From contig RQOP01000005.1 of NCBI GenBank assembly GCA_008373095.1, positions 1 through 63,145 of the forward strand: DNA of 63,145 nucleotides, written 5' to 3'. Under the pieces are notes generated by a model. That model ran no database searches, had not been told where the DNA came from, and saw only the letters and a program-made list of their open reading frames with translations. Origin of the DNA: SAR202 cluster bacterium. GTDB taxonomy: Bacteria > Chloroflexota > Dehalococcoidia > Lucifugimonadales > UBA826. Made by a program: the position numbers and the translations under genes. Positions within the stretch are counted from its first letter, which is position 1. Every line of letters begins with the position of its first letter. Shown here piece by piece: positions 19,303-39,888 of the stretch.

Positions 19303-20157
19303 ATGTTCAATAAGATACTACTTCCTGTTGATGGATCCGAAACTTCAAAAACTATCATTCCTTACTGCGGTAACTTGGCCCAAGAAAATGATGGTCACAT
19401 AACTTTATTTTTTGTAGAAACCGGAGATGTATCAAGTGAACCATTTTTGGATAGCGCCATAAACGAACTGCTTACCAGCGGGTTGAAAGCGGATAGCATT
19501 CGAGTCAGAGGAGCCGCCGCTGAACAAATCGTTTTCTACGCAGAAAACAACAACTACGACTTGATAGCCATGTCGACTCAAGGCCGAAATGGGATGAAAC
19601 GAGCTGTTATAGGCAGCGTAACTGAGGAGGTGATTAGGAATACTTCTCTTCCTGTCTTGACGGTAAATGGATCCAGAAACAATTCAGGAAATGGAATGAG
19701 AATTGGCAAAATTATTGTCCCATTAGATGGCTCTACACTTTCTGAGTCTGCTCTACCTTTTGCCATTTCGTTGGCATCGGAAATACCATCTGATCTTCTA
19801 ATCACCAATGTAATAAGTCCTACAAAAGTCATTGCAGGTGATCCAATACTGGATGGACTAGTAACTTTTGATGAGACTTCACATACCGTGAAAGCTAAGA
19901 AAATAGATTCGGATCAATACTTATTTGAAACTACCAACAAGCTGTCAGGCAATCCGGCTACCATCGAGTCAGAGGTATTAGAGGGTGAACCTTCGCAGGC
20001 AATAATGGCCTTAGTAGAACGGCACACAGACCCGTTGGTTATTTTGGCTTCCCATGGGAGAGCTGGCCTCAGCAGGTTAGTAATGGGTAGTGTGACTGAA
20101 ACCTTGATGAGAACATCAGATTTTCCCATTTTGGTCATCCCGGAAAAATCTGAATAG
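19303..20157 (+). CDS. Tandem-domain universal stress protein
   Basis: Two UspA domains: ILLPVDGS..AMSTQGRNG..IGSVTEEV and IIVPLDGS..ASHGRAG..MGSVTETL; GAGG RBS before ATG 19303. Confidence 0.93.
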   Translation: MFNKILLPVDGSETSKTIIPYCGNLAQENDGHITLFFVETGDVSSEPFLDSAINELLTSGLKADSIRVRGAAAEQIVFYAENNNYDLIAMSTQGRNGMKRAVIGSVTEEVIRNTSLPVLTVNGSRNNSGNGMRIGKIIVPLDGSTLSESALPFAISLASEIPSDLLITNVISPTKVIAGDPILDGLVTFDETSHTVKAKKIDSDQYLFETTNKLSGNPATIESEVLEGEPSQAIMALVERHTDPLVILASHGRAGLSRLVMGSVTETLMRTSDFPILVIPEKSE

Positions 20158-20168
20158 GAAATCGACCT

Positions 20169-20576
20169 ATGCAAACATTTATGCCTTACCCTGAATTCAA
20201 AAAAAGCGCAAAATGCTTAGACTTTAGGAGACTGGGAAAGCAAAGGGTGGAAGCTATGCAAGTGCACCGTATAGTGTCAGGTAAACGCACTGAGGGAGGG
20301 TGGATAAATCACCCTGCTGTCAGAATGTGGTGGGGTTACCAAGATGCATTAGCAGCCTACCATAACGCTATGTTGTATGAATGGATTTATCGCGGCTACA
20401 TAAATAACATGCCCAAAATACCGCACGCAGTCGACTATGTGATGCCAGAATTTATAGGTAATAAAAAATTTCACGATTCACACAAATCCAATTTGCTTAA
20501 CAAAGATTTTGATTACTACAAAAAGTTTGGCTGGTCAGTAGAGCGAGATATGCCGTATTACTGGCCAGTACAGTAA
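20169..20576 (+). CDS. Pyrimidine-dimer DNA glycosylase / T4 endonuclease V-like (MSMEG_6728 family)
   Basis: MQTFMPYPEF..SAKCLDFRRLGKQRVE, HPAVRMW.GY, FHDSHKSNLL.KD..YY, YYWP. Confidence 0.85.
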   Translation: MQTFMPYPEFKKSAKCLDFRRLGKQRVEAMQVHRIVSGKRTEGGWINHPAVRMWWGYQDALAAYHNAMLYEWIYRGYINNMPKIPHAVDYVMPEFIGNKKFHDSHKSNLLNKDFDYYKKFGWSVERDMPYYWPVQ

Positions 20577-20601
20577 ATCAGAGTAATTATTCGATTTTGA
20601 C

Positions 20602-21237
20602 CTAACTGACAAATTCGGAAGGAGATCCATCAAAAACAACCCTACCTCCCTGAAGGGAAATAATTTTGTCCGCATAATGCAAGGCCATATCTATGTCATG
20701 GGTTACGACTAATAAAGTCCTTCCTTCCAAAGAAACTTCTTTAAGCAAACTGTAGAACTCTTCTCTTGAATTTCTATCTACCGAGGACAATGGTTCATCC
20801 ATAATGATCATGTCCTTTTCCTGAGCAATAGCGAAAGCTAACCAAACACGTTGCTTTTCTCCTGCCGAAATATCGGAAAAATTGCGTTCCAACAGGCCTT
20901 CAAGGTGAAATTGTTCCGCCAATGCGTCGAGAATTTCTTGTCGAGAATCACTACCTTTATTATTTTTCTTTATGGCTACTGATATTACTTCCCCTACTGA
21001 AAGAAATGGAGGATCAGGCAAATTTTGCGGCAAATAAGAAATGTCTTTTGGGTCAACTGTGTCAACATTCCCAGAATTAACTTGCAAAATTTTCATGATT
21101 AGCTTGAGAACTGTAGTTTTACCCGACCCGTTGGGCCCAACCAGGCAATAAAAGGAATTAGGAGATATTTCAAATGAAACACCCTGCAATATCTTCAGAT
21201 GCTCAATTTCAACGACCGCATTGGACAAGGTAATCAC
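20602..21237 (-). CDS. ABC transporter ATPase (FepC/BtuD type)
   Basis: GPNGSGKT, ISAGEKQR, IMDEP, VTHD. Confidence 0.93.
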   Translation of the reverse strand: MITLSNAVVEIEHLKILQGVSFEISPNSFYCLVGPNGSGKTTVLKLIMKILQVNSGNVDTVDPKDISYLPQNLPDPPFLSVGEVISVAIKKNNKGSDSRQEILDALAEQFHLEGLLERNFSDISAGEKQRVWLAFAIAQEKDMIIMDEPLSSVDRNSREEFYSLLKEVSLEGRTLLVVTHDIDMALHYADKIISLQGGRVVFDGSPSEFVS

Positions 21238-22187
21238 TACTTATACCTCCAGGCCAAATACATCATAAGCGGAGCTCCCAACATCGTCGTTGCGAGCCCG
21301 ACTGGCAGTTCTATAGGAGCAAACAACAACCTTGCCACCTGGTCCGATAATAAGGTGAGTAGACCTCCAGTAAAAGCGGAAATAAGTATCAATGACACTG
21401 GAGAATTTCCTACAAATCGCCTACCGATATGTGGTGATATCAAGGCAACAAATCCAATAAGACCTCCCGCATATACGGAAGAGCCGGCTAAAGCAGCGGC
21501 AATGGACATTAAATAAATCCGAGTTTTTATTGGGTTTACTCCCAGTGATTTGGCAATATCATCTCCTAAAGTTATCGGCAACAACCTTGAAGAAAAAACA
21601 AGCGAGCCAGCCAAACAAGCAAATAATGAACAGGTTAGAAAATATATTAACTGCCAAGAACTGGCAGAAAAGGAACCAGCCACCAGACCAATCACCTGAG
21701 AGGGAAAAACTCTGCCATAAGAGATGACACTAGTCCCCAAAGAAACCATAAGGGCGCCTACGGCTATCCCCATGATAGCGAATTTCACAGGTGTTAAATT
21801 TCGATTAGAACTCAGTGCAGTAAGAAATAAAGCAACAATCAACGAGCTAGCCATAGCCCCAAGAAATACGCCGTATACCGGAATTGATATCAGGCCAACA
21901 GTAACAGCGGCCATAAATATCACTGCTCCCCCACCTATTCCAAAAAGATTAGGATCTCCTATTGGGCTCCTTGTCGATAGCTGGATTAAAACTCCTGATA
22001 GACCCAAAGAAGCCCCTACTAGGACACTTAATATCACACGGGGAATCCTTATCGACCACACTACCGTCGTCATTACCCCATCATCGGACCTCATCAGCCC
22101 ATTGTAAGTATCCTGAAAACTTAGATCTGAGGGGCCTGCAAAAACCCCTACGATCGCGAAAACAAACGTGGCTGCAACTACAGCCAC
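21237..22187 (-). CDS. FecCD/BtuC-type ABC permease
   Basis: IRIPRVIL, PIGDPNLFGI, AKSLGVN, IGFVALISPH, ELPVG..GAP. Confidence 0.93.
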   Translation of the reverse strand: MAVVAATFVFAIVGVFAGPSDLSFQDTYNGLMRSDDGVMTTVVWSIRIPRVILSVLVGASLGLSGVLIQLSTRSPIGDPNLFGIGGGAVIFMAAVTVGLISIPVYGVFLGAMASSLIVALFLTALSSNRNLTPVKFAIMGIAVGALMVSLGTSVISYGRVFPSQVIGLVAGSFSASSWQLIYFLTCSLFACLAGSLVFSSRLLPITLGDDIAKSLGVNPIKTRIYLMSIAAALAGSSVYAGGLIGFVALISPHIGRRFVGNSPVSLILISAFTGGLLTLLSDQVARLLFAPIELPVGLATTMLGAPLMMYLAWRYK

Positions 22188-22215
22188 GTATGGAAAAGAT
22201 TTTCTTACTAAAAGT

Positions 22216-23313
22216 TTACTCAGCAGACACAGCGTCCTTTAGAAATTCAACAGCCTCTACAATTCTAGGTCCTGGGGACTGTAAAAATAAAGCCACATCA
22301 GCCTCCACCACATTACCTGTTCGGATGGCAGTTAAACCTGCAAAAGGAGGGATTTGCTTAATCGATTCAGACAGTCTAGGAGCCGGTGCTGGTGCCGGTG
22401 TAATTGTTACCAACACATCTGGGTTGGCCATCAAAATAGCTTCTGTGGACATCAAAGCGAAACCAGGAAATGGCCCGGAATCTGGCAATCCAGCCGCCTT
22501 GTTATCCATGCCAAGAGTGGCAGCGATCAAACCTGTATAAGACTCTGGACGGGCTGCATACAAATTCCTATCTTGATCCGATATCAATAATAGAACAGCC
22601 CTGCTGTCGTCTGCCCCTATTGAATCAAGTCTACTTTGGATATCGTCAACTGCTTTTTCAGCGACGGATTCTTTACCAATAATTTTTCCGATCATGGAAA
22701 TGTTGCCGGTAACGTCCGAAACACTTTCTGCCTTCACAGCAACAACTTTCAATCCAGATTGGGCAAATATTGCAGCAAATCTAGCTTGGGTCAAAGCTTC
22801 TATGATGACAAGGTCTGGCTGATTACCTATTATGGTTTCCATTGATGGGTCATATGCACTTCCCACATCTGGCAAACTTTGAACTTCTACAGGGAAATTA
22901 GACGCCCTATCTCTCAAAATTGCTGTCCCTCCGGCTGCATACAGCATCTCTGTAGCTGTTGGACTTATTGATGCTATTTTCTCGGGTATATTTTCGAAGG
23001 TTACTTCTTGTCCGAGAGCATCGATTACCACCACTGCCTCTGCAGCTTCAGATTCTCTAGCTGGAGGTGCAGGGTTTGATACAGGACTGGCTGACATTGC
23101 TGACACCGGTGGAGCTGTAGGCTCAGGTGCAACAGTTGCAACTGCTGGCTTTGTAGGTTCAGGGGCTGCGGCTGGTGCGGGTGCTTTTGCAGGTTCAGAT
23201 GACACCGCCGGTGCGGGTGCTTCTTCTACCTTACTATCAGATTCCGAGCATGCTACAAAAATAAATAAAGATAAAGCAATCAAAGCAAGAGAGAAACGTG
23301 TGTAATTAAGCAA
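22216..23313 (-). CDS. Helical-backbone ABC substrate-binding lipoprotein, BtuF/YvrC-like (cobalamin or Fe-chelate), with Ala/Pro-rich linker
   Basis: Lipobox FVAC; about 60-aa A/P/E linker; ASISPTATEML, LPDVG..PSMETII..QPDLV; C-terminal SPGPRIVEAVEFL typical of BtuF-like proteins. Confidence 0.85.
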   Translation of the reverse strand: MLNYTRFSLALIALSLFIFVACSESDSKVEEAPAPAVSSEPAKAPAPAAAPEPTKPAVATVAPEPTAPPVSAMSASPVSNPAPPARESEAAEAVVVIDALGQEVTFENIPEKIASISPTATEMLYAAGGTAILRDRASNFPVEVQSLPDVGSAYDPSMETIIGNQPDLVIIEALTQARFAAIFAQSGLKVVAVKAESVSDVTGNISMIGKIIGKESVAEKAVDDIQSRLDSIGADDSRAVLLLISDQDRNLYAARPESYTGLIAATLGMDNKAAGLPDSGPFPGFALMSTEAILMANPDVLVTITPAPAPAPRLSESIKQIPPFAGLTAIRTGNVVEADVALFLQSPGPRIVEAVEFLKDAVSAE

Positions 23314-23465: not shown

Positions 23466-23675
23466 AGTCTCCTGGCCTTAGTCCCGCCAATTACTAAGTC
23501 CTAAATGCCCTGAAGTGGGGGCCGGCTAGTCTGAGCGGAAGGAGACCAGGAGACTAAAAGCTGCCAGACTCAAGGATTTCTTGATGATTAACTAAGGTTT
23601 GGTTTCAGCCGAGGAAAAGACTGTTGAGAAGCGGTTATAAGCTCCCAGGTTCCAATTTACCCTCAGAGTCTGGCA
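23466..23675 (-). ncRNA. Candidate tandem structured RNA (two domains closed by 10-bp perfect stems); class unknown
   Basis: TGCCAGACTC 23562-23571 / GAGTCTGGCA 23666-23675 and AGTCTCCTGG 23466-23475 / CCAGGAGACT 23546-23555; internal helices pair better on the minus strand (G-U pairs); each domain is followed by a U-tract on minus. Confidence 0.45.
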
Positions 23676-25121: not shown

Positions 25122-25583
25122 TCAAATATGGGCTAGAATGGCCTTATAATCTGGAATAATCCCAGGATGCTCACCCATCCAGCTATAAACCAGTATCCCG
25201 TCCTGACCTGCAATAAAGACCGCACGATTAGAGCTCCTGTAGTTGGGAAGACCAGCAAGGCCTGTAAAAGAAACTCCAAAAGCATCAATACAATCGAGAT
25301 TGTAATCGCTAATCAAGTCATAACTTATACCGTTCTGATTTGCCCAGGCATTCAATGCAAATGGGGAGTCAGCAGAAATCCCGACCACTTTAACGTTGGA
25401 ATGATTAAATTTATCCAACATATCGCCAATCTGACATAACTCATCAGTACAAACATCTGTAAAAGCACCAGGGAAAAAGGCAAATAGTGTTTTTGTTCCA
25501 ATAAATTCTTTCGAATTTCTTTCCTTATGATGACTGTCAAAAAAAGAGAATTCTGGAATCTTATTTCCTACTTGCAACGGCAT
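25122..25583 (-). CDS. Peroxiredoxin (AhpE/PrxQ-like)
   Basis: FPGAFTDVC (PxxxTxxC) with a second Cys five residues later; GISADS, LISD, NRAVFI. Confidence 0.9.
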   Translation of the reverse strand: MPLQVGNKIPEFSFFDSHHKERNSKEFIGTKTLFAFFPGAFTDVCTDELCQIGDMLDKFNHSNVKVVGISADSPFALNAWANQNGISYDLISDYNLDCIDAFGVSFTGLAGLPNYRSSNRAVFIAGQDGILVYSWMGEHPGIIPDYKAILAHI

Positions 25584-25623: not shown

Positions 25624-25953
25624 TTATAAAACGTTGTAATACCAAAGAATATATATATTAACTGCAGTACACAGGACACCGACCAAAACGGACAATCCAA
25701 TAGGCACCAAGCTATGGAAACCCCATTTGTTTGACATAGATGCCGATTGACAAACAAACAGAAATGTCGCGATCACCCCAAGACCCCACATTGACATTGC
25801 TACCCACAGTAGAATTTGCGTATTGGAGTGGAACCAAGAATGACCTTCTATAAGGTTATCTCTGTAATAAAAACTTGCGTGCAAAAAAATGGAAGACGCA
25901 ATAAAAGGAAAACAACCAATAAGACCTTTTGTAATTGATTTGTCTTTTACCAC
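25624..25953 (-). CDS. Hypothetical membrane protein
   Basis: 109-aa ORF with three hydrophobic segments; no recognised motif. Confidence 0.45.
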   Translation of the reverse strand: MVKDKSITKGLIGCFPFIASSIFLHASFYYRDNLIEGHSWFHSNTQILLWVAMSMWGLGVIATFLFVCQSASMSNKWGFHSLVPIGLSVLVGVLCTAVNIYILWYYNVL

Positions 25954-26093
25954 TTCTGCAGGAATATTTATCGCAGCACCTACTATTTTCTGTAAGTTTT
26001 TCTATTGTGAAGCCTACAAATTTCTGTCGTTTCTTTGGCTGTGTGTTACCTTTTACTGAGAAGACCCTATTTTCCCAGAAGAGTTATAAAAGT

Positions 26094-26669
26094 TTGAACT
26101 ATCTCATCATATCAGCCATTTGGGCGATCACATCTTATTTCATTGGAACCGTATCAATTGGAGATTGCATAGCTAAATTTAAAAAAGTAGATATTCGCTC
26201 ACGCGGCACAGGTAATCCCGGGGCTTCGAATATATATGCGGAAATCGGACCTGTATATGGAGTATCTGTCTTCTTTATTGATATCGCGAAAGGCTTAATC
26301 ATCACCCTCCCCGTTGTTTTGCTGGAATACCCAATCTGGATTGCAACTATTGGGATTATATTTTTCCTTCTCGGACATATGGTCATAAATCCATGGGGTA
26401 AACCTGGTGGTATTGGTATGGCTACTACCATGGGGGCAGGTATAGTTCTTCTTCCTATGGGAGCTTTAATAGCTGTTATCCCCGCCTTCCTGATACTAGT
26501 TATCACTAGGAGGCCATCCTATACAGGAGTTTTCGCATTTATTGCTACGATAATTGCTGGCTGGTTAGTCCATTTAGACCTTTTAGCAACCACCTCTGTA
26601 CTCATATTAGCTGGAGCAGTATTGGTTAAATTTCAATTCCAATATCGAGACCTAGAAACCCACAAATGA
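26094..26669 (+). CDS. plsY: Glycerol-3-phosphate acyltransferase PlsY family (start probably TTG 26094)
   Basis: DIRSRGTGNPGASN, IDIAKG, LGH..PW..GGIGMATTMG. Confidence 0.85.
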   Translation: MNYLIISAIWAITSYFIGTVSIGDCIAKFKKVDIRSRGTGNPGASNIYAEIGPVYGVSVFFIDIAKGLIITLPVVLLEYPIWIATIGIIFFLLGHMVINPWGKPGGIGMATTMGAGIVLLPMGALIAVIPAFLILVITRRPSYTGVFAFIATIIAGWLVHLDLLATTSVLILAGAVLVKFQFQYRDLETHK

Positions 26670-27104
26670 CACCAAAACCCAAATACTTATCACAAGCTTG
26701 GAAGTCCACAGAATAGTCCTAATCCAGTTAGTATTTACCAATTTTTCGGTATACATGATTTGATTTTCAGGAAATTCCAGCCGTTGGTGATAGGGGATTT
26801 GAAGAAATGCTGTGGAAACCCAAATCACACACACCAAAGTGGTATTGATTACCAAGAGCCCAACTGCAACATCCGGGATAAATACTAATAAGATCAAAGC
26901 AATACCTGCTTCAAGGGTCATAGCCAAGGCAACTAATGGTGTGATTTTTTTTACATGGCCGGAGTGGTATTTTTGAAAATCACCAGCATCTACATAGGAA
27001 AATAAAGGATAGGAAACTAACTGAATTAGCCATATTAGCCCAACCATAAAAGAAGAAACCACCAAATTAAGAATCACGGCGAATAAAAAAATTTGCTCTG
27101 GCAC
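26652..27104 (-). CDS. Conserved 4-TM membrane protein
   Basis: GLIWLIQLVSYPLF, H..ITPLV..MTLE, STAFLQIPYH, LVNTNWIRT.LW pattern; four TM segments. Confidence 0.7.
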   Translation of the reverse strand: MPEQIFLFAVILNLVVSSFMVGLIWLIQLVSYPLFSYVDAGDFQKYHSGHVKKITPLVALAMTLEAGIALILLVFIPDVAVGLLVINTTLVCVIWVSTAFLQIPYHQRLEFPENQIMYTEKLVNTNWIRTILWTSKLVISIWVLVSFVGF

Positions 27105-29518: not shown

Positions 29519-29590
29519 CAGTGATAGGTTCCCTGAGCATCTCAATACACAAAACGTAAGAGTTACTTAATGCACTTTTTAAACTATTTC

Positions 29591-29619: not shown

Positions 29620-29658
29620 GGAACATGTGGTCTCAAAAAATTTAGGAGTCTCTTGAGT

Positions 29659-30183
29659 ATGACAAATGTCTTAGTATTTTTCCTCGTCAACCTAGTAGGG
29701 GGGGTTGCTGTTTTAGGTTCATACGTTGTCGGGCTTTACATTTATCCTGACTTCAGAAATGCCTTGTGGGGGGGAGTTGCGGGGAGTTGGAAATCCCTTT
29801 TCACTGTTTCTATGTTTTTCGCCGCAGCAGGATACCTAATATTCTGTTATTCAATGACAATTTCTGGCGCAGCGGATAAATCATCGTTTTTGGGTGGGCA
29901 CACTTTTTCCATACTTGCTGCATTTTTCTTGTTTTCGGCTTCAATCTGGATGCCAGCAACGCTGAAATATCTTGCGACCGACGATAATTTATGGTGGATA
30001 TTATCAGTTATTTCTCTATGGATCACTGCTGCTTCCTTGTGTTTGCTAACAGTGTCTTTTGGCCTATCTAACTACGATGGTATTGGAACATTACAATTTT
30101 CATTAACATTAGTGGGAATTATTTGGATAACATTCCATTGCCTTGTATTTGACGCCATTATCTGGGTGACCAAGTTCCATTAG
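29659..30183 (+). CDS. Hypothetical multi-pass membrane protein
   Basis: AGGAG RBS 10 nt before ATG 29659; five hydrophobic segments; LWGGV motif. Confidence 0.75.
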   Translation: MTNVLVFFLVNLVGGVAVLGSYVVGLYIYPDFRNALWGGVAGSWKSLFTVSMFFAAAGYLIFCYSMTISGAADKSSFLGGHTFSILAAFFLFSASIWMPATLKYLATDDNLWWILSVISLWITAASLCLLTVSFGLSNYDGIGTLQFSLTLVGIIWITFHCLVFDAIIWVTKFH

Positions 30184-31303: not shown

Positions 31304-32489
31304 ATTGACAGAAAGTCTAGGCAAAAGATTGTCTCCTCTAATTCTACCTAGATTTAGAGGAATTGGCGTTTTAGTTGAAACCCCCGACGGTGCAGTGCAC
31401 CGATTGGACAATCATGACCCAGAAAATGTTCACGCTATCACCATAAAAAAATGGAGTTTCTTCTATGACCTGCTAGTAGGATATGACCTCGGGTTTGCAG
31501 AGTCCTACATAAATGAAAAATGGGAATGCACTAACCTACCAGATCTTTTCAAGCATCTATCAAAATCAGCACCTGACAACGCTATATCTAGATTATCAAA
31601 ATATTTCCCTAAAAAAATTAAATCTAGAATCTGGCAACGAGTCAGGTCATCAAATACTATTAAATGGGCAAAAAGAAACATAGAAGAACATTACGATCTA
31701 AGCAATGAGTTTTTTAGCTCCTTTTTAGACCCGTCTATGACATATTCATCTGGAATATATGACTCCCCTGATGAAGACCTATCAGTAGCTCAAAACAGAA
31801 AATTAGAAACCTTACTTGAAAATAGCGCAATCAATGAGGGTGACCAGATATTAGATATCGGATGTGGTTGGGGAAGTTTAGTGTTTAAAGCAGCCTCTGA
31901 ATACAACTGCGGGGTTGCAGGGGTTACCTTATCCAGAAACCAATATAAATACACTTCAAGCCTTTTGAAGAACCACAAGCTTTCCAATAAGACAAAAATA
32001 ATGTTGATGGATTACAGGGAAATAGAAAATAAGTTTGACCATATTTTTTCTATTGAAATGCTTGAAGCCGTTGGGCACAAAGGAATAAATGAATTCTTCA
32101 AAAAATGTGCTCAGATTTTAAACAAAAATGGCACCATACAGGTGCAAGTAATTACTATTCCTGACGAACATTACGATTCATACAGAAAAAACTGTGACTT
32201 CATACAAAAATACATATTCCCCGGCGGTATGCTCCCTTCATTAGGAATAATCCAAAAATCTGCTCAAGAAAATGGTTTTGAAATATTAAAAATGAGGTCT
32301 CTGGGAAGCGATTATGTCAAAACCTTAAGAGCGTGGAGAAATAACTTATATTCGAATCGCCAAAATTGGAAGGACATTGGTTTTGACAATTCCGACTACA
32401 GAAAATTTGAATACTACTTCAGCTATTGTGAAGGTGGATTTGACTCAGGACATATAGACAACTACCAAATATCATTTAAGCGTCTTTAG
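31296..32489 (+). CDS. CFA-synthase-family SAM methyltransferase (UfaM-like)
   Basis: LGFAESYI, HYDLSNEFF, MTYSS, LDIGCGWGS, SIEMLEAVG, FIQKYIFPGG, YFSYCEGGF. Confidence 0.92.
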   Translation: MTELTESLGKRLSPLILPRFRGIGVLVETPDGAVHRLDNHDPENVHAITIKKWSFFYDLLVGYDLGFAESYINEKWECTNLPDLFKHLSKSAPDNAISRLSKYFPKKIKSRIWQRVRSSNTIKWAKRNIEEHYDLSNEFFSSFLDPSMTYSSGIYDSPDEDLSVAQNRKLETLLENSAINEGDQILDIGCGWGSLVFKAASEYNCGVAGVTLSRNQYKYTSSLLKNHKLSNKTKIMLMDYREIENKFDHIFSIEMLEAVGHKGINEFFKKCAQILNKNGTIQVQVITIPDEHYDSYRKNCDFIQKYIFPGGMLPSLGIIQKSAQENGFEILKMRSLGSDYVKTLRAWRNNLYSNRQNWKDIGFDNSDYRKFEYYFSYCEGGFDSGHIDNYQISFKRL

Positions 32490-32491
32490 TT

Positions 32492-33526
32492 ATGTGGTAC
32501 GAATCATTAGCTTACAGCGGATTAATACCAGACATTTTAATAAGAGCTCTCATCCGATACAAATTGGATAAATATGAAGAATACGTAGGAAATCTTTCTC
32601 CAAATTCAATACGCCAAATCAAAGATGAATTCATCACTATAGCCTCCCAGGGGCCGATAGCAATCGAAACACAAGCAGCCAATTCTCAACATTACGAATT
32701 CCCCACTACATTTTATTCTTCCATTCTTGGTCCCACACTAAAGTACAGTGGATCTATGTGGAATTCAGATGCAAATAATCTGGAAACAGCAGACTTAGAA
32801 ACCTTGAAAATCTACACTTCACGGGCGCAAATACAAAACGGACAATCAGTGCTCGATATCGGGTGCGGATGGGGATCATTGTCGTTGTATATTGGCAAAA
32901 CATTCAATGACTGCAAGGTGACAGCCTTAACAAACTCAACGACACAACAAGAATATTTAAATGCTCAGATACAAAAGCACAACCTGGTCAACGTAAGTGT
33001 TACCAAAATTAACATTAACGACTTTCAACCAGTCGATAAATACGACCGGGCTTTATCTATAGAAATGTTTGAACACACAAGAAACACAAAACTACTCATG
33101 GAAAAGATTAATGGTTGGTTGAACCATGAAGGAAAATTGTTTATACAAGTTTTCTCCCATTCCACGTACCCGCAGTTCTTTGACGACTATTCAGACTCTT
33201 GGATGTCACGCAATTTTTTCAGTGGGGGGATGATGCCATATTCCGGATTCCATCACGAAATTTCCAAGTGTTTAAACCTAGCAGAAATATGGGAAGAATC
33301 TGGTATTAACTACCATAGGACTTTGGAAGCATGGCTTAATAATTTGGATTCCTCAAAAAAAGAATTGGTTGGGTCATTGGAAATACCAGATCAATCCACC
33401 TCACCCAAATTAGCAATAAACAAGTTTCGCATATTTCTTCTGTTTTGCTCAGAATTATTCAACCATAATCAGGGTATGTCCTGGAAAATAATGAATTATC
33501 TTTTTACCAAACAGGAGACTCGCTAA
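32492..33526 (+). CDS. Second CFA/coclaurine-N-methyltransferase-like SAM methyltransferase
   Basis: AANSQHYE..FY..LG..LKYS, LDIGCGWGSL, SIEMFEH, WMSRNFFSGG. Confidence 0.88.
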   Translation: MWYESLAYSGLIPDILIRALIRYKLDKYEEYVGNLSPNSIRQIKDEFITIASQGPIAIETQAANSQHYEFPTTFYSSILGPTLKYSGSMWNSDANNLETADLETLKIYTSRAQIQNGQSVLDIGCGWGSLSLYIGKTFNDCKVTALTNSTTQQEYLNAQIQKHNLVNVSVTKININDFQPVDKYDRALSIEMFEHTRNTKLLMEKINGWLNHEGKLFIQVFSHSTYPQFFDDYSDSWMSRNFFSGGMMPYSGFHHEISKCLNLAEIWEESGINYHRTLEAWLNNLDSSKKELVGSLEIPDQSTSPKLAINKFRIFLLFCSELFNHNQGMSWKIMNYLFTKQETR

Positions 33527-33528
33527 AG

Positions 33529-34785
33529 TTGGAAATCGGCATTGTTGGCAGCGGTATTTCAGGTATATCTGCAGCTTACCACCTTCAAAACCAACATAAA
33601 ATCACTCTTTTTGAAAGAGAAGACAGTTTAGGAGGCCATACTAACAGCATCGCTGTCTCCGATGATGAGGGCCAATCCTTCAACATAGATACAGGATTCA
33701 TAGTATTCAATGACAGAAACTATAAACATTTTTCAAAATTCATAGAAGAATTGGAGGTACCTACAGTGGAGACAGACATGTCTTTCTCTTATACAGATTC
33801 TTCTAAATCCATTGGATACGCTGGAACTTCGAATGGCTTGTTTCCTACCGTTAAATCTTTCTTAAATCCGAGACATACATGGCGTCTGTGGAACATCTAT
33901 AAATACTCCAAATTATTAGACGCTAACTCCGATAAATTTAGTGACCGCAGTATCTCTATATATGATGCTTTGAAGGGATTCCAATGTCCTGATGATGTGA
34001 TTGACTCATACTTTACACCGATAGCATCCGCTATTTGGTCTTGCAATCAAAAAGATTCCCAAAAAATACCTGCCAACGCGTACGTAAATTTCTTTCAGAA
34101 TCACGGTTTATTATCCATATCAGAAAGACCTGCTTGGTTCACAATAAAAGGCGGTAGCAAACAATACCTGAAAAAATTTGAAGAAACCTTTAAGGGAAAT
34201 ATTAAAAAAAGGAACAAAGTAGTTTCTATTATTGAAAATTCCTCAAAAGTGGAGGTTCGTTGCCTAAACGAACCAGCTATTTCATTTGACGCAGTTATCT
34301 TAGCCACTCATGCAGATATCTCGGCGAAAATACATACCAATACTCCTGACTCCAAAATGGAGGTGCTGAATCAATATAAATATTCAGATAATTTTGCAGT
34401 TCTTCATAAGGATGTCACTTATATGCCCTCAAATGAAAAAGTGTGGGCTTCCTGGAACGTGAAGAGGCAAAATCAAGCAAACCAAATATCATCTTTTGAA
34501 GTCACTTACAATATGAATCGGCTGCAACGGCTTACATCAAAAACAAACTTTCTTGTCACACTAAACCCGACTCAGCCTCCAGACCCTAACATGACTTTAT
34601 ACTCTACGAAGTACACGCATCCAATTCTTTCTTTTGACTGTTCTGACAACGAAAAACATTTCGACATATTGAATTCAACAGGTAGGGTTTTCTTTTGTGG
34701 GGCATATTTAGGTTATGGCTTTCATGAAGATGGGTTCGTATCTGGCATGAAAGCAGCTCAATCAATCAACAAATTGCCAGGGTAA
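33529..34785 (+). CDS. FAD-dependent amine-oxidase-fold protein (UfaD/RSP_1091-like)
   Basis: GSGISG, GGHTN, IDTGFIVFNDRNY, WASWN, TYNMNRLQ, CGAYLGYGFHEDG. Confidence 0.9.
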   Translation: MEIGIVGSGISGISAAYHLQNQHKITLFEREDSLGGHTNSIAVSDDEGQSFNIDTGFIVFNDRNYKHFSKFIEELEVPTVETDMSFSYTDSSKSIGYAGTSNGLFPTVKSFLNPRHTWRLWNIYKYSKLLDANSDKFSDRSISIYDALKGFQCPDDVIDSYFTPIASAIWSCNQKDSQKIPANAYVNFFQNHGLLSISERPAWFTIKGGSKQYLKKFEETFKGNIKKRNKVVSIIENSSKVEVRCLNEPAISFDAVILATHADISAKIHTNTPDSKMEVLNQYKYSDNFAVLHKDVTYMPSNEKVWASWNVKRQNQANQISSFEVTYNMNRLQRLTSKTNFLVTLNPTQPPDPNMTLYSTKYTHPILSFDCSDNEKHFDILNSTGRVFFCGAYLGYGFHEDGFVSGMKAAQSINKLPG

Positions 34786-34789
34786 TAAA

Positions 34790-35596
34790 TTGAGATCCTA
34801 TATTGTGTCTGGAATTTTAGATCATCAAAGGTACGGTCCGTCTTCACATTCATTCAGATTTAAACACACCATGTTGATGTTAAACACTGACCACCTAGAA
34901 TCCCCAAAAAAGCTATGTTCACTTATTTCTATTGAGAAAACAGGTGTGTTATCGATCAATTTTAAAAATATGATCGATGCAACAAACAAACCTATCGGAG
35001 AAAAAATTCAACGTCTCTTTAAACTACAAGGCAATCAATCCAAATCTTCTAACTCTTTCGCAGTCACTACCCCTTCAGTTCTCGGATACAGCTTCAACCC
35101 AGCATCCTTCTACTTTGTAATAAATGATGAAGATAAGATAGAAAATTGTGCGGTAGAAGTTCATAACACTTTCAATGAATCACACCTTTATATATTAAAT
35201 TCACCTACAGCAGGTTCATCTAAATCAAGTAAATATACCCATGAAAAACAATTCCATGTGTCACCTTTTATAGGAAGGGAAGGCAATTATGAATTCGAAT
35301 TTGAATTAACAGCAACTTATCTGAAGATTAACATAACCCTTTTCCACAACAATCAGCCAATAATATCTACAAGATACCTCGGTGAATTGATACCTTTGAC
35401 CAGGAAAAATCTATTCTTGAACATTAGGCAATTGATATTTACTGTCCTACTAACAGAGTCCAGAATATTGAAACAAGCATATAAATTGCATTTTCGGAAA
35501 AAACTTCCTCTTTTCAATAAACCAATCCCCTTAGCTATGACAAAAATTGCTCTTTCTAGGGGTTTTATATCCAAACTGAAGATACCTTTCGTATGA
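34790..35596 (+). CDS. DUF1365 protein (UfaO/RSP_1090-like)
   Basis: H.RYGP..HSF, P.VLGYSFNPASFY, EVHNTF.E.H.Y, KQFHVSPF. Confidence 0.9.
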   Translation: MRSYIVSGILDHQRYGPSSHSFRFKHTMLMLNTDHLESPKKLCSLISIEKTGVLSINFKNMIDATNKPIGEKIQRLFKLQGNQSKSSNSFAVTTPSVLGYSFNPASFYFVINDEDKIENCAVEVHNTFNESHLYILNSPTAGSSKSSKYTHEKQFHVSPFIGREGNYEFEFELTATYLKINITLFHNNQPIISTRYLGELIPLTRKNLFLNIRQLIFTVLLTESRILKQAYKLHFRKKLPLFNKPIPLAMTKIALSRGFISKLKIPFV

Positions 35597-36354
35597 AAGT
35601 GAATCCAATTAAGTTAACTACTAAATACATTTTCGTATTTCTGATAGTTATTGGTTTAAGTTCCATATTTATCAAAACTGCATCGGCGCACATACCTTTC
35701 ATATCGAACGATAACCACAACAGTGCTCAAAGTCCCTTAGTTGTTTATGACATAGCTGTATCAAAGGTTATCTATCAAAAATTGACCGATGATTCACCAG
35801 AATCATGGATATCTTTCAAAGCCGATCAAGGCGAAGTTCTGTATTTCAATTTAGGAGTACCTCTTTTGGAAGAACTAAAAGATTTCAGACCCTCCATAGG
35901 ACTTCTAACCCCATCATCTCAAACGCTTTCTGTAAATTCCTTAAAAGAATCCGAGGTATTTCCGACACTTGATATTACCGACCCAAAAACCTTTTATGAA
36001 CCCTTCACAAAGACGAATTCTTGGACCTTTACGGAACACAAATTCGATATTCCAACAACTGGCAACTATTCCCTAGTCACCTACTCTCCCAAAAAACAAG
36101 TGGGAAAAGTCTGGGTTTCTATTGGTAAAGAAGAAAGATTTGGCCCTAGTGACTGGATCACTATCCCAGCCAAGATACCGGAAATCCGTAAATTCCATTC
36201 CTCAAACATAAAACCGTCAATAGATGAATCCCAAAATAGCAACGGCACAAGCTATTGGGTGTTCTTAACTGGTGGAATAGGCATATTTTGCCTAATGCTA
36301 TTTTTAATAAGAAGGTTTTTCATCAAGACTTTTCGTACCTTAAAGAAAAGTTAA
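35593..36354 (+). CDS. Exported hypothetical protein with C-terminal TM anchor
   Basis: Signal peptide ending ASA-HIP; FYEPFT motif; C-terminal TM. Confidence 0.75.
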   Translation: MKVNPIKLTTKYIFVFLIVIGLSSIFIKTASAHIPFISNDNHNSAQSPLVVYDIAVSKVIYQKLTDDSPESWISFKADQGEVLYFNLGVPLLEELKDFRPSIGLLTPSSQTLSVNSLKESEVFPTLDITDPKTFYEPFTKTNSWTFTEHKFDIPTTGNYSLVTYSPKKQVGKVWVSIGKEERFGPSDWITIPAKIPEIRKFHSSNIKPSIDESQNSNGTSYWVFLTGGIGIFCLMLFLIRRFFIKTFRTLKKS

Positions 36355-36494
36355 CCTTCACAGAATTTTTCTGAGCTACATACCTCCCCTTACTTGGCAA
36401 GCTTTTTCTATGAAAGCAGGCGAATATAAATTTCCCGATATTGCTCTTTAATACATGTACTGCTCGATTTTATTTGCTTTAGTACATTTTTTTG

Positions 36495-36524
36495 TTGACA
36501 AACGTGAACACAGGCTGATAATAT
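36495..36524 (+). promoter_or_regulatory. Strong sigma70-type promoter
   Basis: TTGACA, 18 nt, TAATAT with TGn extension; followed by palindrome TGTGTT-TC-AACACA (36524-36537). Confidence 0.65.
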
Positions 36525-36560
36525 GTGTTTCAACACAAATTAAATAAAGGAATGTGCTTT

Positions 36561-36713
36561 ATGAAACACTTAACAGATTGTAATCGCTGCGGTGGAAATC
36601 TGGTTCTTCTTCAAGATTATGAAGGGTTCTATATCCAATGCATTCTGTGCGGAAGAATAGCAAAAAAAAGAAGCACTTCTTACAAGAGCAAAGGAGGCGT
36701 ACGAGCTGCATAA
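36561..36713 (+). CDS. Small zinc-ribbon protein (50 aa)
   Basis: AAAGGA RBS; CNRCGG...CILCG. Confidence 0.7.
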   Translation: MKHLTDCNRCGGNLVLLQDYEGFYIQCILCGRIAKKRSTSYKSKGGVRAA

Positions 36714-36757
36714 TTTTTTATTTCGATCAATTTATCAAATTTACAAAAGGACAAGAT

Positions 36758-36979
36758 ATGAACAACAAAAACGAATCTAATTTAGGTGCATGGATAGATA
36801 TGGCAGAAGGCTTGTACGACTTTCTTAACCGCCGGAAAACAACTATCAACTACGACTTTAAGCAACTTTCCGTTTCTGTACCTCAAGGCACCGGCCCAGG
36901 ATCTGAAAAAGCGGAGTGGATGGTCTCCGGCATGATAAGTGTAAGCACAACAGAGAATGACGAAAATCAGACAGAATAG
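36758..36979 (+). CDS. Small conserved hypothetical protein (73 aa)
   Basis: AAGGA RBS; LYDFL.RRKTTINYDF..L.V.VP.GTGP..AEW.VSG pattern. Confidence 0.7.
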   Translation: MNNKNESNLGAWIDMAEGLYDFLNRRKTTINYDFKQLSVSVPQGTGPGSEKAEWMVSGMISVSTTENDENQTE

Positions 36980-36994
36980 GCGGTATTTAAAGTC

Positions 36995-37330
36995 ATGTGG
37001 TTTGATCTCAAAGGAAACTTAGAAGTCAGTGCTGGAGAATATATATTTGAAATTACCTGCGACCGTAGAGAAATTTATTTTAGGCTACCAAGTGAATTCA
37101 AGCCGAATTCAGTCGCAAATTTAAGTTGGGCCTCTTACAAGAATTTCATCAGGGAGGCAGCTGACAATTTCGCCAAACATAAACTCACTATCTATGTGTA
37201 CCAAGATGAAGACCTTCTAGTTGTTATTGGAGATAAAGCAAAATCATCATTCCTGCAGTCAATATTCGCAGGCACTAACGTGGAAATTAAAGAGAAGAGA
37301 AAAATAATTAAATTAATGAAGGATATGTAA
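36995..37330 (+). CDS. Hypothetical protein (111 aa)
   Basis: Co-directional, tightly packed ORF; its stop abuts the next start. Confidence 0.7.
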   Translation: MWFDLKGNLEVSAGEYIFEITCDRREIYFRLPSEFKPNSVANLSWASYKNFIREAADNFAKHKLTIYVYQDEDLLVVIGDKAKSSFLQSIFAGTNVEIKEKRKIIKLMKDM

Positions 37331-38434
37331 ATGAAATTCGAGTGGGGAATATTACAAAACGAAATAGATGATGGCCATGGAGGCGTGGCCTCTTTACTTA
37401 AGCGAATGGATTCCTCACTCAAGGGAGAAGGACTTCCACTCGAAGGGTTTGAGTTTCTCAATTCAGCCCAGGAAATGCTGCGTATCACTAGAGAAATTGA
37501 AGATGCGGCCCTTATGGCGGGCCCAGACTCCACGGTTTTCGTAGGTTTTCAAAATATAGATAAACTTCAGAATGAGTACGATAGATATCGAGATCTGATT
37601 TCCAATGGAGTTACTATTCACGCATTTGGTACAGGGGATTCAGATTCATGGGCTATGGATGCCTGTACGTCCTGGAATCCTTTGTCCAAATCAACCTCCA
37701 AGGTGGAAAACCAGTGGATGCTGGTTGCAAAAGACCCAACCCCAATAGCGTTTATAGGATGGGAAGTTTCAAGGGGAATATTTGGGGAAGGTAAATTATC
37801 AGACCCGGGCAAGCTATTTGAAGGCTTTGCCTCCTCTGATTCAAGAATAGTAGATAGTTTAATTCAGCATTTAGAAGCAACAAGAATCGAAAATTCCCAA
37901 AAAAATGACTCATCCTCAAAAAACCTCAAAGAGAAGACATCTCCCTACAGCAAAATAATGCTGGTTACTGAGGATAAATCAAATACAAGCGATGGAGGGA
38001 AAATACTCGGCTATGAAGACTCTCTGGTCAACTTTTGCCAGGAAAATGGAGCTGAAGCAATACTCTATGATATTTCAGCATGCTCTTACTTCGTTAAACC
38101 CGTTCCCGCTGAATCGGATAATTTATTGAAAAATGTAATTGACACGGAAACAGTAGAGAACCTAGGCCGGCTTAACCTCGCTGCACAAGGGAGAGTTTTT
38201 GAAAATGCCGGTTTGAAAACTTCTTATTTGTTACCGGAAAAAAATGGGTTTAAACATTTGATTGAAAGAGCTACCCAAGAAAAAATAGATCTTATAATCC
38301 TTGACGACTACTATAGTTCACCTAGACTGATGGATCGAATAGCGGGTAATTCCCTATCCAATATAGATCAGAGCGCTACTGTTGAGGTTATGCTTTATAA
38401 GGAATTGCAATCGCAGTCAATATCAGTAGCATGA
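37331..38434 (+). CDS. DICT sensory domain fused to USP-like C-terminal domain
   Basis: ITREIEDAA..VFVGFQNIDKL..EYDRY..L..GVTIHAFG..ENQWMLV..IAFIGWE (DICT pattern); C-terminal LIERATQEKIDLIIL (USP-like). Confidence 0.7.
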   Translation: MKFEWGILQNEIDDGHGGVASLLKRMDSSLKGEGLPLEGFEFLNSAQEMLRITREIEDAALMAGPDSTVFVGFQNIDKLQNEYDRYRDLISNGVTIHAFGTGDSDSWAMDACTSWNPLSKSTSKVENQWMLVAKDPTPIAFIGWEVSRGIFGEGKLSDPGKLFEGFASSDSRIVDSLIQHLEATRIENSQKNDSSSKNLKEKTSPYSKIMLVTEDKSNTSDGGKILGYEDSLVNFCQENGAEAILYDISACSYFVKPVPAESDNLLKNVIDTETVENLGRLNLAAQGRVFENAGLKTSYLLPEKNGFKHLIERATQEKIDLIILDDYYSSPRLMDRIAGNSLSNIDQSATVEVMLYKELQSQSISVA

Positions 38435-38454
38435 AAATATAGACACGTCTTCCT

Positions 38455-39888
38455 ATGAATATATTAATCGCAGGTGCCAGCGGATATGTAGGCACACTAC
38501 TAATAAAAAAGCTGTCAAATGAAAATCACAACATCTCATGTGTTTCTAGAAATCCTGAGATGATTGAGAGCAGGTTTCCTCAGTTGAACTTGAAAACTCA
38601 CAAAGGAGACCTGCTTTCTCTGAAAGAAAATCATAAAGCTTTCGATAACATCGATGTCGCCTACTATCTTGTACATTCTCTTAGTGCCGGTAAGGACTTC
38701 CCTCTCCAGGAACTTAAATGTGCAGAAAACTTTATCAAAGCAGCAAAAGCGGCCGGAATACCCAAAGTCATCTATCTAGGAGGATTGGCTAACGAGCAAT
38801 CTCAACTTTCCAGGCATTTAAAGAGCAGGCTTGAAGTGGGAGCAATGCTTAGATCCACAGAAGTAGTGTGTGTTGAACTTCAAGCTTCGGTGATAATCGG
38901 TTCTGGCAGTCTCTCATACGAAATAATGAAAAATTTAGTAGAAAGACTTCCAATTATGCTAACTCCTAAATGGGTCTCATCTCTGTCTCAGCCCATTTGG
39001 ATCGAAGATGCCCTTGAATATCTCACACAGTCAGCCACAGTGGAATTCAAAAGGAGTACTGTAATTCAAATAGGAGGACCAAACCAGGTTACTTACAAAC
39101 AATTAATGCAGATATATGCAAATCTGAGAAACCTAAAAAGAATCATGATATCCGTACCTGTGTTAACTCCAAACCTATCAAGCAAATGGCTAGGTTTAGT
39201 TACTCCAGTCTATGCAAGGGTCGGTAAAAAACTAATCGAAAGCTTGAAGAATGACAGCATAGTCACTAAACCAGTCGACAGAGATTTATTTAGCATAATT
39301 CCTTCTAGCATTGAGACTGCCATCGCAAACACTATGAAAGTCGAACAAGATGGCCCCAGTGAATCACGTTGGTACAATTCAGTTTCATCCTCCACTAAAG
39401 TAATAGATAAAGAAGATGACACGTCATATAGATACTTGTTAAGAGATGTAAGGGAAATTATAGTGGCCGTAGGACCCATGGAGGCCTTTAAACCAATAAA
39501 CCAAATCGGTGGCTCCAATGGATGGTACTATGCGAATTTTTTATGGAAAATAAGAGGGTGGATTGATTTACTAGCAGGGGGGGTTGGTATACGTCGAACA
39601 AGAGTAAATCAACACACCTATGTTATTGGCGATACCCTCGACTGGTGGAGAATTTCTGACCACATACCAAATGAACTCGTAATTCTAGATGCAGAAATGA
39701 AACTTCCTGGAAAAGCATGGCTCAAATTCGAAATCGTTCCATCCCAAAAAGGGAGCTTGATAAGGCAGACTGCGGGAATGGAAACAAATAACTTAATGGG
39801 CCTTTTATACTGGTACGGACTATTCCCACTGCATTCCATCATATTCAGAGGAATGCTCAACGCAATCGGGAAAAGAGCCTCAGCTTAG
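38455..39888 (+). CDS. NAD(P)-binding SDR/epimerase with DUF2867 (YbjT-like)
   Basis: AGASGYVG, YYLVHS, IYLGGL, HLKSRLEVG, IIGSGS.SYE, GG.NGWYY..LWKIRG..D..GG, AEMKLPG.AWL. Confidence 0.9.
   Translation: MNILIAGASGYVGTLLIKKLSNENHNISCVSRNPEMIESRFPQLNLKTHKGDLLSLKENHKAFDNIDVAYYLVHSLSAGKDFPLQELKCAENFIKAAKAAGIPKVIYLGGLANEQSQLSRHLKSRLEVGAMLRSTEVVCVELQASVIIGSGSLSYEIMKNLVERLPIMLTPKWVSSLSQPIWIEDALEYLTQSATVEFKRSTVIQIGGPNQVTYKQLMQIYANLRNLKRIMISVPVLTPNLSSKWLGLVTPVYARVGKKLIESLKNDSIVTKPVDRDLFSIIPSSIETAIANTMKVEQDGPSESRWYNSVSSSTKVIDKEDDTSYRYLLRDVREIIVAVGPMEAFKPINQIGGSNGWYYANFLWKIRGWIDLLAGGVGIRRTRVNQHTYVIGDTLDWWRISDHIPNELVILDAEMKLPGKAWLKFEIVPSQKGSLIRQTAGMETNNLMGLLYWYGLFPLHSIIFRGMLNAIGKRASA

Follow-up and report, generated by a model that had tools for sequence, protein, structure and literature searches.

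Does a B12-binding regulator encoded in a gene island of a marine SAR202 bacterium place the photoprotective and lipid genes around it under the control of light, and how far along the island would that control reach? The island occupies positions 19303-39888 of the window, the whole stretch of 63,145 nucleotides that was analysed (SAR202 cluster bacterium, assembly GCA_008373095.1, contig RQOP01000005.1, positions 1-63,145, forward strand). The genome has a size of 1.95 Mb and is 94% complete, and near-identical DNA is present in more than 20 marine metagenomes out of more than 10 studies. A preliminary description of the window had combined the entire island into one self-contained system, for B12 import, for light sensing by means of this B12, for remodelling of membrane lipids and for DNA repair. 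On the evidence given below, we assign a probability of roughly 0.6 to the proposal that the regulator, here termed B12-XRE, is an adenosylcobalamin (AdoCbl)-dependent light-sensing repressor acting on five promoters, with a regulon core that runs slightly past the island, to 40456. Gene neighbourhoods were compared by tblastn of the window proteins against 80 loci and by pre-computed annotation; domains were called at the curated Pfam and NCBIfam cut-offs, and RNA families at the Rfam gathering score or, where stated, at E≤10. L001-L091 denote loci in relatives, G094 a congener genome, X25-X33 metatranscriptome runs and C numbers contigs.

B12-XRE consists of a four-helix bundle and a Rossmann-type B12 module, followed by a C-terminal XRE helix-turn-helix (HTH) domain (HTH_3, residues 244-293, 49.8 bits versus a cut-off of 23), whose solved relatives include C.AhdI, SinR and HipB. 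With the ATG at 28071 as start codon, the resulting 296 amino acids equal the length of the closest homologues. With the XRE domain behind the B12 module, the protein has its domains in the opposite order to CarH/LitR. No MerR domain was matched in the regulator by Pfam, and the N-terminal winged helix that defines CarH/LitR proteins is thus missing; B12-XRE would therefore work like CarH without being a member of that family as defined. On alignment, every signature residue of the CarH photoreceptors is present. W64-H65, E74-H75 and H112 align with W131-H132, E141-H142 and H177 of Thermus thermophilus CarH (TtCarH; phmmer, 5C8A, E 3e-14), within the W-x9-EH motif of the four-helix bundle (GELW64H65EGRITIAHE74H75) and the lower axial His motif E/DxHxxG of the Rossmann domain (SGENH112WMG). 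W64, E74 and H112 do not vary among 26 homologues, the most distant of which is 31% identical, and H75 is conserved in at least 90% of them; the His after the Trp (H65 here) varies as Q, K, L, A or S in distant family members. In TtCarH, this residue next to the Trp, H132, forms a bis-His adduct after photolysis. The family comprises about 120 clusters at 90% identity, almost all from Dehalococcoidia/SAR202, and 172 genome stretches encode a relative; the genome studied here has a single B12-XRE gene. Since the nearest named relatives of the regulator are metagenome-assembled genomes of Dehalococcoidia/SAR202 (81-88% identity), the placement in a SAR202 chloroflexus, proposed earlier from the letters of the DNA, is borne out.

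Five transcription units have a palindrome, TGTAT-N4-ATACA or more loosely TGT-N8-ACA, on their promoters: the universal stress protein (USP) gene with that of a pyrimidine-dimer glycosylase, TIGR01777-SRPBCC with the regulator, the lipid operon, a Zn-ribbon/DICT/DUF2867 cassette, and h134 (Table 1). The TIGR01777 gene is the first of the regulator's operon, its stop overlapping the regulator start by 14 nt. In the 113-nt gap between this gene and the divergent membrane-protein gene mem174, TGTACTATAACACA and TGTATTATGGAACA each overlap the -10 element of one of two back-to-back promoters. The pair and its 20-nt spacing are kept in L001, L002, L005, L007 and L008, and in L009-L018 the palindrome arms co-vary (TGTGT/ACACA, GTGT/ACAC, CATGTA/TACATG). 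The USP pair, TGTATTTTATTACA and TGTATCAAAATACA, ends 2 nt 5' of the USP start codon, and an RNA contig begins at 19290. TTTGCTTTAGTACA and TGTGTTTCAACACA flank the strong promoter TTGACA-16-GATAAT of the Zn-ribbon/DICT cassette. The single site in front of h134, TGTATTAAAATACA, stands out as a footprint in five genomes (also L001, L002, L003 and L005), palindrome and TTGACA being constant and the flanks divergent.

Perfect copies of TGTAT-N4-ATACA are not enriched genome-wide (5 observed versus 2-5 in shuffles). Therefore, we relied on clustering and on a matrix trained solely on the TIGR01777-promoter sites of other genomes, with which the full 1.95-Mb genome was scanned. The island sites rank 1, 2, 3, 6, 26 and 38, with the TIGR01777-promoter pair at 1 and 2, the h134 site at 3 and the USP pair at 6 and 26, and the other top matches, outside the island, lie mostly within open reading frames (ORFs). 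Six of the 13 best intergenic matches fall in the island; after removal of the two orthologous sites, 4 of 11 remain in a region that makes up 1.2% of all intergenic sequence (binomial P 7e-6). The operator signal is one of clustering and conservation, not of genome-wide enrichment of perfect sites.

These data could also be read more narrowly, with the regulator acting on its own divergent promoter pair only and the other palindromes representing AT-rich promoter features or the sites of another factor. The lack of enrichment agrees with this view, as does the overlap of the matrix training sites with the -10 box: the TIGR01777-proximal site falls on an extended -10 box (TGnTATAAT), whose function in the promoter by itself accounts for some of the conservation of this site. 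In addition, the upstream site of the Zn-ribbon cassette (36473) is weak, and in other genomes the cassette genes have their own paralogous B12-XRE. However, the clustering is significant, no TATAAT lies at the centre of the USP and h134 sites, whose 5-nt arms are perfect, and the h134 footprint is mutated in G094, which has no regulator. Together with the co-representation of the units in RNA described below and the presence of just one B12-XRE gene in this genome, this makes control confined to the divergent pair unlikely.

The motif is superficially similar to CTGT-N8-ACAG, a UV glycosylase is among the targets, and a similar site, TGTGTAATCATACA, occurs at C76:33825, ~120 nt upstream of a gene for a DinB-like Y-family polymerase. 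The palindromes might thus be the SOS (LexA) boxes of the lineage and the island a DNA-damage regulon. However, no TGT-N8-ACA sites were found at the lexA and recA promoters, which share GAACAT-N2-GTAY instead, and for this reason the island palindromes are not taken for SOS boxes; furthermore, T/A rather than C/G borders the island sites, and lipid-modification genes are no SOS targets. We regard a DNA-damage regulon as extremely improbable. The shared element (CGAACATTAGTAC at lexA, C104 ~3400-3460; AGAACATATGTAT at recA, C44 ~48800-48860) is a candidate SOS box of this SAR202 lineage and resembles the Cheo box. The site near the DinB-like gene could be an extra regulon member or a chance match. 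Another operator-like sequence, TGTGTTATAACTCA, is located at C91:26924, ~50 nt upstream of an alpha/beta-hydrolase gene and 3.5 kb from the only other gene in the genome with a B12-binding domain (C91:23035-23364).

According to the light-sensing model, AdoCbl-loaded B12-XRE would oligomerise in the dark via its CarH-type module, as CarH forms tetramers, and its C-terminal XRE domains would bind TGTAT-N4-ATACA-type palindromes that cover the -10 box or the transcription start, or adjoin the -35 box, at the five promoters. Most sites come in pairs, and their distances of 20, 31 and 51 bp (roughly 2, 3 and 5 turns of the helix) would fit binding by a dimer of dimers. Light would break the Co-C bond, and His65 could then occupy the upper axial position, like His132 in Thermus CarH; the oligomer would disassemble and the promoters would open. 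The predicted response includes USP and the pyrimidine-dimer glycosylase (unit 1); TIGR01777-SRPBCC and the regulator, with probable autoregulation, and perhaps h150 (unit 2); the membrane protein, the putative di-iron protein h361 and the lipid genes of ufaM/ufaD/ufaO type (unit 3); the Zn-ribbon/DICT/DUF2867 cassette (unit 4); and the Zn-ribbon protein h134 (unit 5). The position of h150 is conserved in L002-L004 and L006-L010, and it is possibly the third gene of the regulator's operon.

Conservation of the locus in relatives is among the evidence for this model. The core, in the order h253, DUF1365, Amino_oxidase, CMAS2, CMAS1, h361 and mem174, is divergent from TIGR01777-SRPBCC and B12-XRE, beyond which follow (h150) and the convergent PlsY gene. 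More than 12 loci, with regulators of 39-88% identity, show this arrangement. The preliminary description had named scattering of the genes in relatives as an outcome that would refute its proposal; the core is kept together, and the other listed genes move and yet stay attached. AhpC, for instance, is the final gene of the lipid operon in L085/L012, and in L009/L010 it is located on the lipid-operon strand between the h361 and TIGR01777 genes, the position that Pyr_excise takes inside the lipid operon of L018. Paralogous B12-XRE genes in L024, L029 and L034 adjoin the small protein, DICT and DUF2867 of the cassette, and that in L020 only DICT and DUF2867. Taken together, the core in more than 12 loci and the share of the best intergenic operator matches that lie in the island demonstrate that the grouping is more than chance.

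More distant loci add photoprotection genes to this picture. In L061 (SAR202 OSU_TB62), the regulator faces genes for SRPBCC, UfaD-like, UfaO-like, short-chain dehydrogenase/reductase (SDR), SRPBCC, DCC1, photolyase and DUF2867-SDR proteins. In L082 (4435-7852), from a distant member of the Dehalococcoidia/Chloroflexota, B12-XRE faces a 51-aa ORF, DUF2867-SDR and heliorhodopsin, and a TudS-DUF1722 gene (RudS-like tRNA s4U desulfidase) comes after it; the divergent region of L082 contains a TGTTG-N8-CAACA palindrome. Among 151 genomes sampled from the order, the regulator is present in 23 and DUF1365 in 26 (both 15, regulator only 8, DUF1365 only 11, neither 117), which yields an odds ratio of 20 and P 1e-8 if phylogeny is ignored. 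On the same basis, the regulator occurs in 10 of 12 photolyase genomes versus 13 of 139 others (odds ratio 48, P 5e-8). Three of the four rhodopsin-bearing genomes have it as well.

A natural loss was observed in G094, from the same genus: regulator, DUF1365, lipid operon, USP/glycosylase and DICT cassette are missing, as is photolyase from the entire genome. At the corresponding locus (L091, C43:24000-38000), the island flanks are 4.7 kb apart instead of 22 kb. What is left are short fragments of DUF2867, h361, mem174 and the ABC (ATP-binding cassette) ATPase and a TIGR01777 gene split over two frames; h134, PlsY, h109, the solute-binding protein (SBP) gene SBP6 and a different peroxiredoxin are retained. 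The TIGR01777-promoter palindromes are gone, and the left arm of the h134 operator has changed from TGT to CGT. These leftovers and the decay of the operators indicate a block loss that took the regulator and the operators with the island.

A B12-binding repressor could, however, also read the supply of cobalamin in the dark rather than light. A family member in L081 adjoins cobT, cobS and cobU, and B12-binding domains also serve without photochemistry, for example in corrinoid proteins, whose NCBIfam models match the regulator weakly. Against a ligand-dependent sensor of this kind stands the W-x9-EH motif with the His after the Trp, a signature that sets light-responsive cobalamin-binding domains (CBDs) apart from enzymatic ones (PMC11796333). 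Moreover, the targets and neighbours of the family belong to photoprotection (photolyase, heliorhodopsin, ufa genes, UV glycosylase), its association with photolyase is strong, and the sole candidate corrinoid importer of this genome has no operator. We therefore judge a mere cobalamin-supply sensor to be improbable.

This importer, an ABC ATPase, FecCD permease and class-III Peripla_BP_2 binding protein (22216-23313), was the basis for the B12-import step of the earlier proposal, in which the whole 20 kb, including importer, SBP, AhpC and PlsY, would form one system for B12 import, light sensing and response. Synteny of importer, SBP6 and AhpC with the core does exist in L002 and L008 and, in part, in L007; G094 lost the importer along with the island, keeping only a 35-aa remnant, and the gene for the periplasmic binding protein (PBP) is moderately represented in two RNA runs. 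Furthermore, late B12 assembly genes seem to be missing, so that corrinoids would have to be imported: no homologues of CobT, CobS and CobU of a relative were detected in the genome by tblastn, which fits corrinoid scavenging. The genome encodes a PduO-type adenosyltransferase and only two B12-binding domains, and the organism probably scavenges B12; in agreement, euphotic SAR202 have been reported to be without cobalamin synthesis (PMC11245477).

The binding protein itself, however, is no nearer to BtuF than to heme or siderophore binders. It scores 40 bits against the BtuF model (cut-off 234), is matched better by the PGF-anchored, F420-0 and IsdE models, all below cut-off, and has hemin-binding HmuT (7e-12) ahead of BtuF (5e-7) among its relatives in the PDB. 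No cobalamin riboswitch, which many but not all BtuFCD leaders carry, was found in the window at the Rfam gathering score, nor in the 372-nt PBP leader at E≤10. Motif search and matrix scan revealed no operator at the importer, SBP6, AhpC and PlsY promoters in this genome; L001 retains the regulator and lipid operon without an importer, and PlsY, SBP6 and a peroxiredoxin outlast the loss of the island in G094. By sequence, the importer is of the FecCD/HmuTUV/BtuCDF class; it is not assigned to the regulon, and its designation as BtuFCD-like is not supported. A regulatory system spanning the whole 20 kb appears improbable, and the B12-import step is not supported; the five units with palindromic operators make up a credible regulon core, in which importer, SBP, AhpC and PlsY are not included.

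Contig depth in eight marine metatranscriptomes, whose day/night and depth metadata are coded, is a crude proxy for expression, and it reports co-representation of the units, not light induction. In seven of the eight runs, depth peaks at USP-glycosylase, TIGR01777, mem174 with h361, and Zn-ribbon to DICT; the eighth, X31, has nearly no coverage. The USP and glycosylase genes show high depth in X26, X29, X30 and X33, the Zn-ribbon/DICT cassette reaches the highest depth of the region, and h134 is covered in the four runs compared there and represented in X25, X26 and X28. RNA contigs end near predicted promoters, at 19290, at 29544-29567 on the TIGR01777 side, at 29645-29705 where the lipid operon starts and at 36545-36568 where the Zn-ribbon cassette starts. 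Depth is about zero at SBP6, AhpC and PlsY and mostly so at the importer. It also falls sharply beyond h361 within the same apparent operon, so that transcription or mRNA stability drops there.

Several points weigh against a light-sensing repressor with five target promoters. Besides the missing enrichment of perfect sites, the -10 box at the TIGR01777-proximal site, the neglect of phylogeny in the co-occurrence statistics and the limits of contig depth, these are the separate contigs on which regulator and DUF1365 lie in several genomes of the order, the lack of an operator upstream of the photolyase gene at its promoter on contig C98, and the scarce representation of CMAS1 to h253 (31303-36354) in seven of the eight RNA runs. 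For the family as a whole, B12 binding, light response and repression are what we infer, and its DNA binding is predicted.

The lipid operon contains adjacent genes for a trio of UfaM, UfaD and UfaO type, assigned at the family level only: a methylase like cyclopropane fatty acid (CFA) synthase, an amine-oxidase-like FAD desaturase and DUF1365. Their Pfam scores, together with that of a second CMAS-like protein, are 286 (CMAS), 130 (second CMAS), 92 (Amino_oxidase) and 178 bits (DUF1365), over 31296-35596. The last gene, h253, encodes a protein with a signal peptide and a C-terminal membrane anchor. The gene order from CMAS to h253 is conserved in L002, L008-L014, L018 and L085. A furan fatty acid is a candidate product of the operon.

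Upstream of the trio, h361 belongs to a family of 45 clusters, none with a Pfam domain, whose named sources are all apparently SAR202/Dehalococcoidia. In 30 sequences, E62, E96xxH99, E151 and E182xxH185 are invariant. A structural model built from these 30 sequences reached a predicted local distance difference test (pLDDT) score of 78, versus 47 for an AlphaFold2 (AF2) model from 10 sequences. Foldseek ranked stearoyl-acyl carrier protein (ACP) desaturases at the top, weakly (template modelling (TM) score 0.45-0.5, E 0.02), with R2-like ligand-binding oxidases behind them; neither Pfam at E≤5 nor a PDB profile search gave a match for h361. Possibly, h361 supplies or modifies the unsaturated acyl chain used by the CMAS enzymes. 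For mem174, an orthologue was found by tblastn in L002 only, plus a 46-aa fragment in G094; L085 and L083 have a gene of 179-181 aa without Pfam match at the equivalent divergent position, and in most loci reversed N-terminal coding sequence is visible where mem174 lies.

The circuit can be compared with three known types of control. CarH and class I LitR proteins (Thermus thermophilus, Myxococcus xanthus, Bacillus megaterium, Streptomyces) are AdoCbl-dependent photoreceptor repressors. B12-XRE shares with them the four-helix bundle and Rossmann B12 module, W-x9-EH, the His after the Trp and the lower axial His, as well as the proximity to photoprotection genes, operators that overlap promoters and probable autoregulation. 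In contrast to CarH, with its N-terminal MerR winged helix, it has the reversed order with an XRE/HTH_3 domain at the C terminus, its candidate operators are paired inverted repeats, those of CarH being tandem direct repeats, and its predicted targets are lipid, UV-repair and stress genes instead of carotenoid genes.

In Pseudomonas putida and P. mendocina, class II LitR (PplR/PmlR) governs the same gene families, which are light-induced 25-33-fold, and the families of its cluster (phrB, SDR, FAD oxidoreductase, ufaM and hypotheticals next to the regulator) recur here and in L061 (PMC9758184). Unlike B12-XRE, these LitR proteins are of the MerR type, have no functional B12 module, need a LOV partner and come from another phylum. 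In the sigmaE-ChrR singlet-oxygen regulon of Rhodobacter sphaeroides, which also includes UfaM, UfaD (RSP1091) and UfaO (RSP1090) make furan fatty acids (PMC7380195). Both systems are tied to photo-oxidative stress and have the three genes in a cluster, for a methylase like CFA synthase, a desaturase like amine oxidases and an oxygenase of the DUF1365 family. Control in Rhodobacter is exerted by an extracytoplasmic function (ECF) sigma/anti-sigma pair that answers singlet oxygen, and not by a photoreceptor repressor. Neither an ECF sigma nor a ChrR domain was found among the genes between 16.6 and 42.9 kb, the stretch searched. Relative to Rhodobacter, the SAR202 operon has a second CMAS-like protein, the putative di-iron, acyl-ACP-desaturase-like protein, the membrane protein and h253 in addition.

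Database mining with SignatureFinder has described light-responsive CBDs fused to HTH domains at the N or C terminus, as a general statement with a similarity network; the proteins tested there were of the MerR type or photocobilins (PMC11796333). In the searchable literature, we found no XRE class, operator, regulon or Chloroflexota/SAR202 context for such fusions, and no description of a system of this kind in Chloroflexota, as the preliminary description had presumed. New, and partly supported, is a CarH/LitR-type photoprotection circuit on an XRE scaffold in SAR202, whose light response we infer.

A wider proposal, which we advance tentatively and at somewhat less than even odds, is that B12-XRE proteins form a class of AdoCbl photoreceptor-repressors of their own and serve marine Dehalococcoidia/SAR202 as their main transcriptional light switch. 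The paired palindromes would then be bound by a dimer of XRE dimers, joined by the dark-state B12 module, and the modular regulon would gain operator-carrying cassettes and, once a lineage moved out of the light, be shed as one unit. TIGR01777-SRPBCC, the SAR202-only h361 and the Zn-ribbon and DICT proteins are best represented among the targets; under this proposal they would define new photoprotective or signalling chemistry beyond furan lipids. These strongly expressed targets are also candidates for new photoprotective biochemistry. SAR202 is among the most abundant bacterial groups of the ocean and commonly regarded as a heterotroph of the dark ocean; sampling over the diel cycle revealed no periodicity in it (PMC6769238). 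If true, a light switch made up of a 296-aa protein, 14-bp operators and five promoters would offer a handle on how surface SAR202 cope with sunlight, and would help to explain how deep lineages shed this capacity. It would also add another DNA-binding scaffold to the repertoire of B12 photoreceptors, namely XRE, with operators that are palindromic, which is of interest for green-light optogenetics.

Table 1. Features of the island and its regulon core, in window coordinates
Feature	Positions	Strand	Remarks
Paired operators TGTATTTTATTACA (19245) and TGTATCAAAATACA (19276)	19245-19289	.	31 nt apart
Tandem Usp	19291-20157	+	Pfam
Pyrimidine-dimer DNA glycosylase, T4-endoV type	20169-20576	+	Pyr_excise / MSMEG_6728 family (Pfam, NCBIfam)
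Importer: ABC ATPase, FecCD permease, Peripla_BP_2	20602-23313	-	Pfam; FecCD/HmuTUV/BtuCDF class
Thiol peroxidase, AhpC/Bcp type	25122-25583	-	AhpC/Redoxin (Pfam)
PlsY	25935-26669		Pfam/NCBIfam
h150	26652-27104	-	~4-5 predicted membrane segments (hydropathy); downstream of regulator, same strand
B12-XRE regulator, 296 aa	27181-28071	-	B12-binding_2, B12-binding, HTH_3 (Pfam)
TIGR01777 (YfcH-like SDR) with SRPBCC-like C-terminal domain	28058-29545	-	301 bits versus cut-off 207
Paired operators TGTACTATAACACA (29592) and TGTATTATGGAACA (29612)	29592-29625	.	20 nt apart
mem174, 174-aa hydrophobic protein	29659-30183	+	first gene of lipid operon; no Pfam match
h361	30218-31303	+	orphan family; putative ferritin-like di-metal protein, weakly resembling soluble acyl-ACP desaturases
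CMAS (UfaM-like), second CMAS-like, Amino_oxidase (UfaD-like), DUF1365 (UfaO-like), h253	31296-36354	+	Pfam
Operators TTTGCTTTAGTACA (36473) and TGTGTTTCAACACA (36524)	36473-36537	.	51 nt apart
Cassette: 50-aa Zn-ribbon, ~73-aa protein, h111, DICT protein, SDR-DUF2867	36561-39888	+	
DICT protein	37331-38434	+	DICT 30 bits versus cut-off 23.8, residues 44-132
SDR with DUF2867	38455-39888	+	Pfam/NCBIfam
h134, 134 aa	39974-40378	-	N-terminal CxxCGG...CxxCG zinc ribbon, paralogous to 50-aa ORF at 36561
Single operator TGTATTAAAATACA	40443-40456	.	7 nt upstream of conserved TTGACA, in front of h134

The gene families listed in the preliminary description are present according to Pfam and NCBIfam, and some of its labels were too specific. 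Besides the importer, this concerns SBP6, called an iron-binding protein, which is a generic SBP_bac_6/1/11/8 member whose top NCBIfam matches are of phosphonate/thiamine type, far below cut-off. Likewise, the protein described as a DICT-USP fusion contains the DICT domain, and no Pfam match at E≤5 or PDB sequence match was found for its C-terminal 227 aa (residues 141-367), the supposed USP half. The SRPBCC label of the TIGR01777 protein holds in part: its C-terminal 187 aa have no direct Pfam match and are 33% identical (E 4e-27) to a stand-alone protein, which in turn matches Polyketide_cyc weakly, below cut-off. For the remaining hypothetical proteins, Pfam at E≤5 gave nothing useful.

Two of the operator-bearing units are strain-variable, and both carry their own operator pair. 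USP and glycosylase (~19227-20479) are not present in L001/L002 and are skipped in the X28 RNA contig; neither L001/L002 nor the X28 strain (joint 36362>39946) has the Zn-ribbon/DICT cassette (36363-39945). Within this cassette, the 113-aa ORF listed at 36638 (region 36525-36979) is probably two small genes in different frames, one for the 50-aa Zn-ribbon (36561-36713) and one for the ~73-aa protein (36758-36979), which is conserved beside the paralogous regulators in L024, L029 and L034.

Rfam matched nothing in a structured region at 23466-23675 (-), not even at E≤10. Downstream of the SBP6 stop, the distal part of this region forms a hairpin with a 10-bp stem (AGTCTCCTGG/CCAGGAGACT) and then runs into a U-tract, so that the region looks like a terminator, not a riboswitch; RNA contigs span it in X25, X29 and X30. 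The sole Rfam family at gathering score in the window is a tmRNA gene at 7825-8173 (+) (RF00023, 166.6 bits).

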